Source: Thermoplasmata archaeon (GTDB lineage: Archaea > Thermoplasmatota > Thermoplasmata > GCA-020350865). From it: a stretch of 64,000 bases of DNA. The stretch covers positions 3,843,765-3,907,764 of the forward strand of contig CP070751.1 in assembly GCA_020348445.1 (NCBI GenBank), in the 5' to 3' direction. Positions 52,662 through 58,393 of the stretch are shown one piece after another. The notes beneath the pieces were generated by a model that ran no database searches, was not told the origin of the DNA, and was given only the letters and a program-made list of their open reading frames with translations. The translations under genes and the position numbers were made by a program. Each line of letters opens with the position of its first letter. Positions within the stretch are counted from its first letter, which is position 1.

Positions 52662-52876
52662 TAGCTCCGGGCCGAAGAAATACGATATAATTGATATGTC
52701 ATTATATTTCTAGGCAAGGGGCTACTCTGGATGACGACTAGAAAAAGATAAAGAGTAGCTCCGGGCCGAAGAAATAAGACCTAATTGATGTTCTATTATA
52801 TTTCTAGGCAAGGGGCTACTCTGGGGGAAGACTAGAAAAAGATAAAGAGTAGCCCCGGGTGGATTCGAACCACCGC
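52662..52876 (-). repeat. Tandem array of tRNA-Gln 3'-end copies (two 94-bp units plus a T-arm/acceptor fragment)
   Basis: Plus-strand TAGCYCCGGG at 52662, 52756, 52850 and 52981; the units share TATATTTCTAGGCAAGGGGCTACTCTGG. Confidence 0.9.
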
Positions 52877-52980
52877 CTAAACCTTTTGGCATCTCCCTCC
52901 GCTGGGCAACCCCTCACAAAAGGTTTTAGGGTCATCCCAAAACTCGGGGTCGTCCTGCTCACTCGATGATAAATAAAGAG

Positions 52981-53054
52981 TAGCTCCGGGTGGATTCGAA
53001 CCACCGTCACGGGATCCAGAATCCCGCATGATTGACCACCTACAATACGGAGCT
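52981..53054 (-). tRNA. tRNA-Gln(CUG), archaeal type, A1-U72, discriminator A73
   Basis: AGCTCCG-TA-TTGT-AGGTGGTCAA-TCAT-G-CGGGA-TTCTGGA-TCCCG-TGAC-GGTGG-TTCGAAT-CCACC-CGGAGCT-A; TTTAATA box about 33 nt upstream. Confidence 0.93.
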
Positions 53055-53233: not shown

Positions 53234-54925
53234 TTAAGTTGTTTTTTGTTGCTGCTGTTTTTGAATCTTGGCCCATGTGTCCCTCAATCCGACGGTTCTG
53301 TTGAAAATCAGCTTCTCTGAGTTGGAATCTGGGTCCACACAGAAATAACCAAGTCGCTCGAATTGGATTCGATCCAACGGTTTAAGGTTCTTTACTGCAG
53401 GTTCTATCTTACATGATGTTAGAACTTCGAGGGAATTAGGATTAATGAAATCCTTAAAGTCCGCATCCTTATGTCCCGCGGGGTCCTTCTCTGTAAAAAG
53501 CTTGTCGTACAACCTAACCTCGGCATCCATTGCGTGGCGAGCTGAAACCCAATGCAATGTGGATTTTACTTTACGACCATCAGGTGCATTGCCCCCTCGC
53601 GTATCGGGATCCACGGTACATCTGAGCTCAACGACCTTCCCATTCTGTTTAATAGCCTCCTTGCACTTAACAAAGTACGCATATCTGAACCGCACCTCAC
53701 GACCTGGTGCTAAGCGGTAGAACTTCTTGGGAGGTTCCTCCATAAAATCCTCTTCCTCGATGCAAAGCTCCCTGGAAAAGGGTACCTTTCGAGTCCCTGC
53801 TGATGGGTCCTCTGGATTGTTTACAGCCTCCATCTCCTCCACCTTATCATCGGGGTAATTTTCAATAACCACCTTGAGCGGTTGAAGTACACCCATGAAC
53901 CTTGGGGCTGTTTTATTCAAATCTTCCCTTATACAATATTCAAGAAATTCGAAGTCAACCATACTGTTTACCTTGGCCACGCCGATTCGCTTGCAGAAAT
54001 TTCTAATTGCAGCTGGAGAATAACCTCGTCTTCTCATTCCGCTTATCGTGGGTAACCTGGGATCATCCCACCCATTGACGTGACCCTCATCCACCAATTG
54101 TTTGAGCATACGCTTGCTCATTACAGTATAGGTAATATTCAACCTGGCGAATTCAATTTGTTGTGGATGATAGACCTCTATTTGATCCAAGAACCAATCG
54201 TATAAAGGTCTGTGATTCTCGAACTCTAAAGTGCAGATGGAATGCGTGATGTTCTCGATTGAATCTTCAAGCCCGTGTGCCCAGTCGTACATGGGATAGA
54301 TGCACCATTTTTCACCTGTGTTGTGATGACTCGCATGTAGGATTCGATATACAATTGGGTCCCGCATATTCATATTTGGGTGCGACATGTCTATCTTGGC
54401 CCTAAGAACCTTTTCACCATCTCCAAACTCACCAGCCCTCATTCTTGTGAACACATCAAGGTTTTCTTCTATTGACCTATCACGATAGGGACTTTTCTGT
54501 CCGGGACTTGTAAGGGTTCCTCTTGTTCTGCTGATTTCATCTGCAGTTGAATCATCTACGTATGCCTTACCTCTTTTAACCAACTCAACAGCATAATCAT
54601 ACATTTGATCAAAGTAATCCGAAGCAAAAAAGAGCCTATCCTCCCAGTCAAATCCAAGCCATCTTACATCCTCGATTATAGATCTAACATATTCCTCTTC
54701 CTCTTTTGCTGGATTGGTATCATCGAATCTGAGATTGCACTTGCCCTTGTAATCCTCTGCTATGCCAAAGTTCAGGCAGATAGACTTTGCATGCCCAATG
54801 TGCAGATAGCCGTTGGGTTCGGGTGGGAACCTTGTATGAACTCGACCACCGTATTTATTCGTCCTTAGGTCTTCATTGATTATATCGCGAATGAAATCGT
54901 GAGCCTCTGCCTCTTCACTGGGCAT
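53234..54925 (-). CDS. glnS: Glutaminyl-tRNA synthetase, bacterial type
   Basis: [69 protein letters not shown]; AAGGTGA RBS before ATG 54925. Confidence 0.97.
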
Positions 54926-55075
54926 ATCTTTCACCTTAATGAGTTTGGGTTAGTAACATTTACTATTATAATTATTTTGTTAAAAGTTTTGATCTATGAA
55001 ATAAATATATTCACTCTCCCCTTACACACAAATATATATATAAAAAACAAATTCTGTTTTTATGGAGGTTAATAA

Positions 55076-55435: not shown

Positions 55436-55464
55436 GTAAAAAGCCCCGGCCCCGAGAAACAGAT

Positions 55465-55770
55465 TCTATCAGCCCCGGCCTCTTCGTGCTTAAGAACCCA
55501 ACATATCCAAGCATAACACGAAGAGAAAGGGGCTGTTTCGTTTCTCTACAATTTAAATTAGAGAAACAGCCCCGGCCAGAATCGAACTGGCGCCAAGAGA
55601 TCCAAAGTCTCTGATGCTACCTCTACACCACGGGGCTATTTGGTTGGAACATTAATTCAGTCAAATAGCCCCTTCGTAGTAAGAAAAGCTTTGGGTTCTT
55701 GCTAGGTTTTCTTTTCTTCCTACCACGGGGCTATTTTACCACCACGGGGCTTCTTAGTTTTATTTATACT
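55465..55770. repeat. 406-bp-period direct repeat unit A (contains tRNA-Gln UUG)
   Basis: Landmarks recur at exactly +406: 55471/55877, 55529/55935, 55567/55973, 55662/56068, 55721/56127. Confidence 0.92.
55567..55637 (-). tRNA. tRNA-Gln(UUG), atypical, discriminator G73
   Basis: AGCCCCG-TG-GTGT-AGAGGTA-GCAT-C-AGAGA-CTTTGGA-TCTCT-TGGC-GCCAG-TTCGATT-CTGGC-CGGGGCT-G. Confidence 0.9.
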
Positions 55771-55870
55771 TTGATACGAATCCCCTTAGCATTAAGAAAA
55801 GCGTTCAAATTCTAATGGGAATTCTTTTCTTAATACCACGGGACTACTTTACTTTTATTTATTCAATTCT

Positions 55871-56176
55871 ACTTTCAGCCCCGGCCTCCTCGTGCTTAAG
55901 ATCCAAGCGTTTTTAAGCATAACGCGAGGGGGAAGGGGCTGTTTCGTTTCTCTACAATTTAAATTAGAGAAACAGCCCCGGCCAGATTCGAACTGGCGCC
56001 AAGAGATCCAGAGTCTCTGATGCTACCTCTACACCACGGGGCTATTTGGTTGGAACATTAATTCATTCAAATAGCCCCTTTGCAGTAAAAAAAGCGTTGG
56101 GATAGTGTTGTGTTTTCTTTTTTTACTACCACGGGGCTACTGCACTCTTAAACAACCTCGGGGCTTATTTGATGCA
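55871..56176. repeat. 406-bp-period direct repeat unit B (contains tRNA-Gln CUG)
   Basis: See unit A. Confidence 0.92.
55973..56043 (-). tRNA. tRNA-Gln(CUG), atypical, discriminator G73
   Basis: Same body as 55567-55637 except anticodon CTG and T-loop TTCGAAT. Confidence 0.9.
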
Positions 56177-56229
56177 AGAGAATGCATAAACAATTATAAA
56201 AATCATTGGTTGTGAAAAATATGTTTTAG

Positions 56230-57792
56230 CTATTTGGCTACTTCCCCGATTCTTCCCACAACAAATCCCTTGTCCAAGGTGGATAAAAAATAACCTAGCC
56301 TAGGCCCATGCTTCTGATCGAGTATTGCCTGATATACCAGTTGAAAGGCCGTTTTAGACTTGATATTCTGGATCTGAGCCAATTCATAAATCGCATTATG
56401 GATGGCATCAGGTGCCCATTCCTCTTGGGTGAGCTTGATTGATAGGTCTTCAAGGTATTTCTTATGGTCGGATTCCAAGGTTATCTTAGGAGTTTCCTTT
56501 GCGATTGAGAACTTAACCTTTTCAGGTGCAAAATTGTCAAGCCAGAACTTCACACATCCTATTCTCTGCTTTAGGTGATTCTCATCCTCTTTGCTGAGAC
56601 TTTCAAAATGCTCTGCCCTCTTCAAGATATCTAGGATTCCTTCAAAGTCCTCATTGATCTGAACAACACTTACAAGATGTCTATAAGGTATTTGCAAAGG
56701 AAGTTTAGAGGGAAGGGAAAAAGGCTGAGAGAGTTCATAGGTTCTCGCCAATTCCTCCTCAATCTTCTCGATTCGTTTGGACTTGTCATCTGCGCTACCT
56801 TCGAAATATCTTTTCTCTGTTGAGTCGTATTCGTCCACGAGGTTTAGAATTCCAAGGCCTGGATCAAAATCAAGATGCTTAATTGGATTGTTTCTAAGAA
56901 CAAAGTACCTGAAAACCTCGGGAGGGGTCATCTTAAGCATTTTGGCTGCGCTGATCACAACACCAGTCGAGGATGACATGGCACCCTTACCCTTTAACTG
57001 AATCCATTCGTAGACAACATATTGTGGAGCCTTCCTATCAAAGACCTCCTCTGAAATCCTCTTTGCTGTGTCGTACGATCCTCCAGCTGCTGCATGATCT
57101 TTACCAAAAGGTTCGAATGTAACCCCTAAAAACCACCACCTTGCAGGCCAATCAACCCTCCACGGTAGCTTGCCATCGTCTTTTCGCAAATCCGCTTTAC
57201 CTTCATGACCACAAGAGCAAGTATAATTGACATATGGAAATTCATAGCCAATGACCTTGGTTGTGGTAAGCCGCCCACATTCACTGCACTTCGGATTGTA
57301 AGGAAACCAGTCATCGGGAAGATCACGTTTTGAAATATCCTGGAGTATCTCCTTTATCCTATCTTTATTGTCCAGCACCTTTCTAGATGCCTCTGTGTAC
57401 ATTCCCTGAGCGTACATTTCATGGGAGAGAAGGACATTGGCCTCTATCCCAAGAGTTTTTGCAGCATCGAGAAATGGAGTAAGAAAATGCTCGGCATAGG
57501 ACTTGTGGCTACTGCATGGACAGGGAATTTCGGAGAGAGGTTTACCCACGTGCTCCTTATAGCTTTCATCTAAAAAAGGATAAACCTTACGAAGGGGGTC
57601 GATGGTATCGCCAATGTATATCAATTGGGCTTCAACATTCTTCTGTTTAAGACCCCGAGTTATTACCTCACCTGTAAGAATCTCCCGCATATTGCCAACA
57701 TGGATGTCTCCAGAAGGGGTAATCCCTGTAGCTATCACATGCCTTTCAGAAAAACTTTGGAGCCTCTTACTCTCAACGTCAACCCAGTGCAT
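56230..57792 (-). CDS. lysS: Class I lysyl-tRNA synthetase
   Basis: MHWVD, TGITPSGDIHVGN, GKLPWRVDWPARW, GKDHAAAGGS, MSSSTG, GPRLG. Confidence 0.95.
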   Translation of the reverse strand: MHWVDVESKRLQSFSERHVIATGITPSGDIHVGNMREILTGEVITRGLKQKNVEAQLIYIGDTIDPLRKVYPFLDESYKEHVGKPLSEIPCPCSSHKSYAEHFLTPFLDAAKTLGIEANVLLSHEMYAQGMYTEASRKVLDNKDRIKEILQDISKRDLPDDWFPYNPKCSECGRLTTTKVIGYEFPYVNYTCSCGHEGKADLRKDDGKLPWRVDWPARWWFLGVTFEPFGKDHAAAGGSYDTAKRISEEVFDRKAPQYVVYEWIQLKGKGAMSSSTGVVISAAKMLKMTPPEVFRYFVLRNNPIKHLDFDPGLGILNLVDEYDSTEKRYFEGSADDKSKRIEKIEEELARTYELSQPFSLPSKLPLQIPYRHLVSVVQINEDFEGILDILKRAEHFESLSKEDENHLKQRIGCVKFWLDNFAPEKVKFSIAKETPKITLESDHKKYLEDLSIKLTQEEWAPDAIHNAIYELAQIQNIKSKTAFQLVYQAILDQKHGPRLGYFLSTLDKGFVVGRIGEVAK

Positions 57793-57796
57793 TCTC

Positions 57797-58393
57797 TCAC
57801 GCAATCGTACGGGCTCTAATAAGCGATCTAGTGGGCACACCATCCATTTCGTACATAGGTGTCTTGTTCACAATAACCACGGACAACAAAGGATTGGCTC
57901 CCTGCTCCTTCAAATCGGCAATGGCACACTTCATAACATGTCCGGTGCTTATCACGTCATCCACAATTACTACATCCTTGCCCTCCAAGGTAGCATAATT
58001 CGAACTAAAGGTACCCTTGCCTTCATCGGTAACTGGTGGCCTGTAAATACCAAGCTCCAGTCCCAGATCCTCGGCAACCATTGTAGCAAAAGGTATTCCA
58101 TTAATTGCTATACCCACCACGCAATCCACCTTTTCTATCTCCTGCTTTTCCATCTCCTCGAGGATGACATCGGAAAACAAACCCGCTATTAAACCGATGC
58201 GACCTCCGTATACACCGATTGATCTCCAACCAACCTTCACATCTATGGGAGGCTTCTCAACCTTCACATTCCTTGTCAAAAGCCAAGATACAGTATCAAC
58301 AGAAAGGTGCAGTTCATGAGATATTTCACTCTCACTGAGACCGTTTCTCTTGAACTCTAGAGCCTTTTCTACGAGAGCATCGATACTTTTCAT
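57797..58393 (-). CDS. Orotate-PRTase-like protein with N-terminal HTH (GfcR-like)
   Basis: N-terminal EISHELHLSVDTVSWLL HTH, DVKVGWRSIG, FSSNYA, VIVDDVISTG. Confidence 0.85.
   Translation of the reverse strand: MKSIDALVEKALEFKRNGLSESEISHELHLSVDTVSWLLTRNVKVEKPPIDVKVGWRSIGVYGGRIGLIAGLFSDVILEEMEKQEIEKVDCVVGIAINGIPFATMVAEDLGLELGIYRPPVTDEGKGTFSSNYATLEGKDVVIVDDVISTGHVMKCAIADLKEQGANPLLSVVIVNKTPMYEMDGVPTRSLIRARTIA

Follow-up and report, generated by a model that had tools for sequence, protein, structure and literature searches.

Flanks of a tandem tRNA-Gln gene pair in a Thermoplasmata archaeon as members of a repeat family that copies tRNA gene ends

The flanks of two tandem tRNA-Gln genes with a G discriminator (G73), located in a 64-kb window of a Thermoplasmata archaeon genome (the window is the whole stretch of DNA that was analyzed), are, judging by their sequence, local members of a repeat family that copies tRNA gene ends. 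Their downstream modules, designated H2, match the core profile of the family, their arms are copies of the ends of the adjoining tRNA gene, and upstream modules of their type, designated H1, are found at other tRNA genes as well. A preliminary description of this region had proposed that copies of the acceptor strands (“decoys”) and their complements (“anti-strands”) bracket each G73 tRNA as a precursor folding switch. The strands are real, but they are the arms of H1 and H2 modules, which flank most dispersed tRNA genes of the genus, and not a switch special to G73 tRNAs. The explanation that we prefer, and to which we give about an even chance, is that the modules originated and are maintained as repeats at the DNA level, with incidental effects on RNA, and that they are not a device for gating G73 tRNAs.

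Organization of the G73 tRNA-Gln units

tRNA genes were identified with ARAGORN and Rfam. tRNA-Gln(UUG) (55567-55637) and tRNA-Gln(CUG) (55973-56043) are both on the minus strand, and each has an A1-U72 pair, G73 and no encoded CCA. A third tRNA-Gln gene in the window, a CUG gene with A73, is at 52981-53054, also on the minus strand. The G73 genes and their flanks form a 406-nt tandem repeat consisting of unit A (CUG) and unit B (UUG), which are 90% identical over 268 nt, versus 76-80% identity to orthologues. The window contains 15 occurrences of the acceptor 5'-strand 7-mer (4.3 expected), a count reached by none of 100 shuffles, and 11 of them fall inside the ∼730-nt stretch of the G73 units.

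The neighbor genes of these units encode LysRS, a glyoxalase-family protein and GlnRS. Class I lysyl-tRNA synthetase (56230-57843, minus strand) is directly upstream, and the gene order LysRS, tRNA-Gln units, GlnRS is common to the genus (genomes G000 to G004). A small glyoxalase-type gene in the opposite orientation lies between tRNA units and GlnRS in G000 and G001. The GlnRS gene (53234-54934, minus strand) is positioned between the G73 tRNA-Gln pair and the A73 tRNA-Gln gene; it is intact, encodes a bacterial-type enzyme (TIGR00440, 755 bits versus a cut-off of 426) and is 66-74% identical to enzymes of Planctomycetota and Chloroflexota. All archaea have been stated to be without GlnRS (PMC3439900). 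Two copies each of GatD and GatE are kept in the genome, and both routes to Gln-tRNA thus coexist. The G73 pair presumably serves the adjacent bacterial-type GlnRS. Because the modules surround this pair, an effect on its expression would bear on how the archaeon runs its direct and indirect Gln-tRNA pathways together.

All flanking features are on the minus strand and are given here in transcript order. Unit A begins with a TATA-like box, assigned by motif position, at 56193-56200. Next is an orphan copy of the tRNA 5' end (the acceptor 5' strand) at 56156-56165, located by motif position and the 7-mer count, whose partner arm is absent. The H1-A fold-back (56072-56139, inverted repeat I8) has 23-nt arms that are 87% complementary and folds at −28 kcal/mol (z −6.0). 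In it, a copy of tRNA nucleotides 1-12 forms the 5' arm, an A/U-rich inner stem comes next, and the “anti-5'” strand serves as the 3' arm. A transcript starting ∼27 nt downstream of the TATA-like box, a distance taken from where promoter motifs lie at simple tRNA-Gln genes of relatives, would include both the orphan copy and H1-A. Junction helix A (56036-56080, inverted repeat I24; 11 bp, 19-nt loop, −20.4 kcal/mol, z −5.6) pairs the H1 3' arm plus 5 nt with five leader nucleotides and tRNA nucleotides 1-6, and so rivals both H1 closure and the acceptor stem. Behind the tRNA, an AT-rich 23-nt spacer with a small 9-bp hairpin (55946-55972, from motif position and genus comparison) leads into the H2-A module (55876-55945; −30.8 kcal/mol, z −4.1), which matches the family profile at 55881-55931 (E = 2.5e-7). 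In H2-A, the tRNA 3' end is present first as an inverted copy, together with a 4-nt complement of the trailer; a conserved core hairpin and a direct copy of the 3' end follow in that order.

Between the units is a decayed H1 copy (55780-55845, repeats D3 and I6) with mutations in both arms (−26.1 kcal/mol, z −5.5). The TATA-like box of unit B (55761-55769) lies in the AT-rich spacer after this copy and is followed by a second orphan 5'-end copy (55742-55751; motif position, 7-mer count). H1-B (55660-55739, inverted repeat I3) has the design of H1-A, with 29-nt arms that are 86% complementary (−26.7 kcal/mol, z −4.4). The H2-B module including its spacer spans 55470-55566 (−32.6 kcal/mol, z −4.9; profile match at 55475-55529, E = 1e-7) and is composed of the 23-nt spacer (55540-55566), the inverted 3'-end copy (55529-55539), the core hairpin and the direct copy (55471-55480). 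At 55438-55451 the tRNA 3' end is copied once more, in a terminal position (direct repeat D4, motif position), and five T follow. Since this is the only run of five T on the minus strand between the unit A promoter and the downstream gene, it is likely to be the terminator of the array.

An exact motif search recovered every motif listed in the preliminary description, with positions off by at most 2 nt. Copies of the 5' strand start at 56165, 56138, 55751 and 55732, with a degenerate copy at 55845. The anti-5' 11-mers are at 56068-56078 and 55662-55672, and their partners at 56038-56048 and 55632-55642. On the downstream side, the arms of the small trailer hairpin are at 55965-55973/55946-55954 and 55559-55567/55540-55548, the anti-3' 11-mers at 55935-55945 and 55529-55539, and the 3'-strand copies at 55877, 55471 and 55442. 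Each 5'-strand copy forms a single 66-nt hairpin with the next anti-5' strand, and each anti-3' strand forms the second hairpin type, H2, with the next 3'-strand copy; inverted repeats I3, I8, I10 and I14 comprise both types. None of 200 shuffles folds as well as the module hairpins, whose energies are −26 to −33 kcal/mol (z −4.1 to −6.0). In both window units, the inverted 3'-end copy can form an 11-bp helix with the tRNA end across a 23-nt loop. The array is thus a row of three domains (H1, tRNA and H2), each closed by an identical acceptor-type stem, with the consequence that the 3' strand of one domain can pair with the 5' strand of the next.

Good promoter motifs are found only upstream of H1, which suggests that H1 is probably part of a 100-130-nt leader. 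Separate promoters for the individual hairpins are one possibility, but the TATA-like runs in the spacers are ∼12-25 nt from the next element, too close for sensible transcript starts. The spacers of the G73 genes contain no run of four or more T, and the sequence of the Gln spacer is a divergent version of the family spacer consensus.

The module family across the genome and among relatives

To survey the 5.16-Mb genome, the ends of each tRNA were searched in the flanks of its own gene (n = 66), with the flanks of other tRNAs as the control. A copy of the tRNA's own 5' end was found upstream of 20 of the 66 genes, a copy of its own 3' end downstream of 23 and an inverted 3'-end copy downstream of 19. 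The mismatched-flank controls gave means of 1.7-2.7 and a maximum of 7. At least one own-end copy is present at 35 of 47 dispersed tRNAs, and the number of modules ranges from 0 to 6 per tRNA gene. In a dense array at genome positions 4,640,570-4,643,566 (about 19-26 tRNA genes in 3 kb), own-end copies occur at only 3 of 19 tRNAs.

A profile of the H2 core was searched against the genome using nhmmer; note that both window copies are among its 22 seed sequences. Of 44 matches, 35 are downstream of a tRNA on the same strand, typically 34-41 nt from the tRNA end. Most of the others are beside tRNAs missed by ARAGORN or are cores flipped between their arms, of which there are four. Two near-identical matches, at 70,962 and 2,191,825, have their own hairpin arms and lie beside no tRNA. 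The conserved core and spacer recur at about 20 different tRNA species. Both the unpaired motifs of the core and the sequence of the spacer (the loop) are conserved across tRNA types, and the family spacers carry runs of 4-6 T. Perfect inverted own-3'-end copies of 7-11 bp were found at 20 tRNAs, with a 24-nt loop at 15 of them. Perfect inverted 5'-end copies are rarer (five tRNAs, including both G73 tRNA-Gln genes). H1-type upstream units, in which a copy of the first ∼11 nt of the tRNA is joined to its complement, also occur at Ala, Thr, Tyr and Leu genes. Both module types, with arms in the sequence of each particular tRNA, are exemplified by Ala, Ile, Tyr, Leu and Thr genes.

The link to G73 drawn in the preliminary description is therefore not supported, since the layout is shared by A73 tRNA-Gln genes and most other dispersed tRNA genes. 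The A73 tRNA-Gln(CUG) gene of the window (52981-53054) has downstream units of the same logic as the G73 flanks, and another A73 gene, tRNA-Gln(UUG) at genome position 223,988, is accompanied by an H2-like unit, three H1 hairpins and the junction helix known from the G73 units. The region behind the window's A73 gene (52662-52980, minus strand) starts with a partial copy of T arm, acceptor 3' strand and trailer; two tandem units of ∼94 nt follow, in each of which the tRNA 3' end is copied once inverted and once direct and the core is a variant unlike that of the G73 units. A bacterial-style tRNA-Gln(UUG) with U1-A72 and G73 (genome positions 1,131,963-1,132,034) is without flanking modules. 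The surrounding stretch is provirus-like and includes a P22-like portal, a Cpn10 gene and a match to a terminase domain that is weak and below threshold.

The tRNA-Gln units recur in the four other genomes of the genus, where segments of differing length are 76-95% identical to unit B. H1 is missing from the plain leader of the G004 CUG gene, which follows LysRS. In G003, additional copies of H1 and H2 are present, and the CUG gene contains an intron. In G002 there is a single G73 gene, and an insert of ∼100 nt separates the tRNA from its H2/anti-3' strand, with 17 nt of the tRNA end duplicated. The insert (L006:1400-1520) is an element with an internal A/T hairpin, placed precisely where the tRNA ends at its 3' side, and copies of it follow tRNA-Gln genes in three genomes of the genus (also in L022 and L023, downstream of A73 tRNA-Gln). 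The small 9-bp trailer hairpin is absent from the units of G003 and G004, and in G001 and G002 it has a broken 3' arm.

At about 18 other Thermoplasmata loci, bacterial-type GlnRS is flanked by tRNA-Gln(CUG) and tRNA-Gln(UUG), many of them G73, and H1 or H2 is confined there to members of this genus; the G73 genes beside GlnRS in other genera have neither. The flanks are present but variable within the genus and absent from orthologous G73 genes beyond it, and for these outer orthologues this is the outcome that the preliminary description had named as refuting its switch. In three other families of the class (L008, L011 and L014), A73 tRNA-Gln genes are followed by flanks of similar design whose cores are unrelated. 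For the two units, Rfam searches returned only the two tRNAs, and literature searches found no account of tRNA-flanking modules of this kind.

Pairing within modules and competition with the acceptor stem

Several comparisons indicate that pairing is maintained. Ten aligned Gln H2 copies have a mean column identity of 81%, and their stems are 84% paired, with compensatory pairs; at one pair, five copies have U-A, four have C-G and one has G-C. Their covariation score is 0.152 versus 0.092 for shuffled alignments, and only 1 of 500 shuffles reached it. In a set of 22 modules from different tRNAs, with 17 distinct arm sequences, pairing in the mid stem amounts to 85%, versus 62% when partners are shuffled. 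An alignment of the trailer hairpins of the two window units confirmed the compensatory change noted before (U-A versus C-G) and also the two disruptive ones. The 4-nt extension of the anti-3' helix fits the real tRNA trailer, and not the 3' flank of the module itself, in all six copies compared (from G000, G003 and G004), in four different versions; this bears out the covariation across related genomes that had been suggested as a check. The partner base of the discriminator likewise switches between A73 and G73.

On the tRNA-sense strand, G·U does not exceed A·C among the imperfect stem pairs: 225 pairs across the family include 1 G·T and 4 A·C. In the Gln copies there are 3 G·T and 13 A·C on this strand, counts that are not independent because the copies are related. 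With A·C exceeding G·T in the Gln H2 stems (55872-55945 and relatives), it is the opposite strand that would fold better as RNA.

Competition between modules and tRNA was assessed with constrained ensembles, because plain minimum free energy folds of whole units have many equivalent pairings and are uninformative. In nearest-neighbor ensembles with the leader hairpin attached, the helix between the anti-5' strand and the tRNA 5' strand has a probability of 0.98-1.0, and that of the canonical acceptor stem is near 0. The upstream H1 5' copy pairs with the tRNA 3' strand (probability 0.68-0.76). Forcing the acceptor stem in H1-tRNA-H2 transcripts costs 4.7-6.4 kcal/mol of ensemble energy, in a calculation that ignores tertiary folding, modifications and co-transcriptional action of RNase P. 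Folding of successively longer prefixes predicts that H1 forms first and that the 11-bp junction helix replaces it once the tRNA 5' strand appears, freeing the H1 5' copy for pairing with the tRNA 3' strand (probability 0.68-0.99), with the acceptor stem remaining near 0. Suboptimal and co-transcriptional folding, a check proposed with the preliminary description, accordingly gave the swapped fold over the acceptor stem, and the mutually exclusive helices that it postulated are favored in silico. The competition follows automatically from the direct-inverted-direct layout, and it would also hold for Leu and Ala genes with upstream helices of 10-13 bp. An A73 tRNA-Gln gene on a contig resembling G003 (L022:5700-5915) has C at position 2 and therefore a C·C mismatch with position 71. 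The upstream inverted strand has the matching change, so that the junction helix and “swapped” pairing are perfect, and acceptor stem and H1 closure are both mismatched.

Origin and possible roles of the modules

Under the preferred explanation, H1 and H2 would be DNA-level repeats that are either selfish or made by recombination or template switching. Their arms would derive from the end of the tRNA gene that they adjoin, and the complementarity of the arms would be kept at the DNA level. The modules would have moved along with the tRNA-Gln genes, and the two units would have been homogenized in this genome. We favor the DNA level because cores are flipped, copy number and completeness vary, orphan and decayed pieces are present, and other small inserts occur at the same junction. 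The closest known repeats are REP/BIME extragenic palindromes, which are mobilized by Y1 transposases of the RAYT type, and MITE-like repeats. Like the modules, these are short, gene-less hairpin units in many copies, often tandem, with hairpins kept by compensatory change and occasional inversion. The arms of the modules, in contrast to those of REP/BIME, are not constant but are remade from the adjoining tRNA gene end, and the modules are tied to tRNAs in a fixed orientation; they also flank no Y1 transposase gene, and terminal inverted repeats were not seen. If such repeats do rebuild their arms from the target tRNA, an as yet unknown mechanism of copying or homing would be indicated at tRNA genes.

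Some observations weigh against a DNA-level origin. The perfect inverted copy at a fixed 24-nt distance, together with an extension that covaries with the trailer, resembles a selected helix with the tRNA end. Modules that are co-transcribed would, by the folding predictions, be costly to the acceptor stem unless they are used. The repeated design with other cores in L008, L011 and L014 fits a functional design and independent element families equally well. A DNA-level origin also does not by itself account for the re-templating of inverted arms at each tRNA, and no mobilizing enzyme was identified among those looked for: Cas1 has no match in the five genus genomes (G000-G004), and of five Y1 transposase matches in the genome none is within 10 kb of a core copy.

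Less probable, and second in rank, is an RNA-level role that serves tRNA genes generally, with the modules acting as processing or termination signals, as stable small RNAs or, through spacer T run and hairpin, as a terminator cassette. Such a role would account for the stability of the hairpins, the compensatory changes in their stems, the conservation of unpaired core motifs and spacer across tRNA types, the runs of 4-6 T and the like design, with different cores, in other families of the class. It also has a documented archaeal precedent in t-elements (PMC4326828), which are tRNA-like structures that RNase P and tRNase Z cleave (PMC4326828, PMC1920247). The t-elements of the Haloferax 5S rRNA leader and of plant mitochondria are, like the modules, non-tRNA hairpins with an acceptor-like closing stem beside RNA genes, and by this analogy the modules are plausible predicted substrates of tRNA end-processing enzymes. 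Unlike t-elements, however, the hairpins have no T-arm-like part, nothing outside the two genes matches the tRNA covariance model at E values up to 1, and the modules form tandem arrays that use the sequence of their own tRNA. Flipped cores, moreover, are tolerated, the sense-strand G·U signature is absent, copy number ranges from 0 to 6 per tRNA gene, and modules are missing at the same tRNAs in other genera and in the 19-tRNA array. Were an RNA role true, most tRNA precursors of an archaeal genus would carry competitors of the acceptor stem, which would amount to a new layer of tRNA maturation. We regard as improbable two stronger proposals: a genus-wide RNA device in which leader and trailer strands keep the acceptor strands of almost all tRNAs in placeholder helices, with maturation by strand exchange, and a homing element that re-templates its arms from the end of the target tRNA.

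The folding switch itself, in which anti-strands open the G73 acceptor stem, decoys absorb them and maturation is gated, is in our judgment very unlikely. The swapped fold is the predicted ground state with the leader, co-transcription of H1 is probable from the position of the good promoter motifs, read-through into H2 is plausible given spacers without a run of four T, and the anti-3' extension covaries with the trailer. These points would fit a switch, but the nearest-neighbor energies omit tRNA tertiary folding and co-transcriptional RNase P, and there is no apparent signal or effector. Attenuators and riboswitches likewise have mutually exclusive helices in one transcript, here predicted; the modules differ in having no sensed signal or downstream decision, in being generic to the tRNA genes of the genus and in being dispensable in orthologues. 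Helices of comparable stability that exclude each other were obtained in silico, but across orthologues they vary within the genus and are absent from the G73 tRNA-Gln genes of other genera. Gating of G73 tRNA maturation is also disfavored by the orthologous G73 genes of other genera, which lack the flanks, by the natural partial deletion or separation of the flanks in G004 (no H1) and G002 (insert), by the poor conservation of the small trailer hairpin and by the lack of a sense-strand G·U excess. A device specific to Gln or to G73 was rejected, because the layout extends to A73 tRNA-Gln genes and, in all, to 35 of 47 dispersed tRNAs.

We are equally doubtful that the copies are attL/attR scars left by repeated integration and excision of mobile elements at tRNA gene ends. 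Archaeal integrases use attachment sites at tRNA 3' or 5' ends (PMC8371274), which can be as short as 14 nt (PMC8371274). The att repeats of SSV-, pNOB8-, pTN3- and SNJ2-type integrases resemble the modules in that a direct 3'-end repeat lies downstream or a 5'-end repeat upstream of an intact tRNA (PMC8371274). Direct copies of both tRNA ends are indeed present, and the G002 insert with its 17-nt duplication at the tRNA end and the partial T-arm/acceptor copy behind the A73 gene would also fit. The copies, however, are 29-100 nt apart with neither integrase nor cargo between them, duplication of an attachment site gives no inverted copies at a fixed 24-nt spacing, and the same core and spacer are shared by about 20 different tRNA species.

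The remaining candidates were rejected as well. A casposon at the 3' end of tRNA-Pro in Aciduliprofundum boonei (PMC5137440), a member of the same phylum, is inserted with a target duplication of about 15 bp and can be in tandem, but only 5 bp of that duplication lie within the tRNA gene, and an inverted target copy is absent (PMC5137440). A casposon or Cas1 origin was rejected since Cas1 was not found in the five genus genomes, and inspection of the module ends showed no terminal inverted repeats. Mobilization of the RAYT type was rejected because the Y1 genes that are present are not associated with modules, and their distribution in the class does not cleanly track module-like flanks. Pseudo-tRNAs or a known RNA family are excluded by Rfam, which reports only the two tRNAs besides two matches to microRNA models that are far below gathering scores and reflect generic hairpins. 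For a bulge-helix-bulge intron or a split or permuted tRNA, non-exhaustive inspection revealed no such motif, and both genes are complete; within the duplicated 11 nt, a single 4-mer can pair with the copy (two G-C and two G·U pairs), with no flanking helices.
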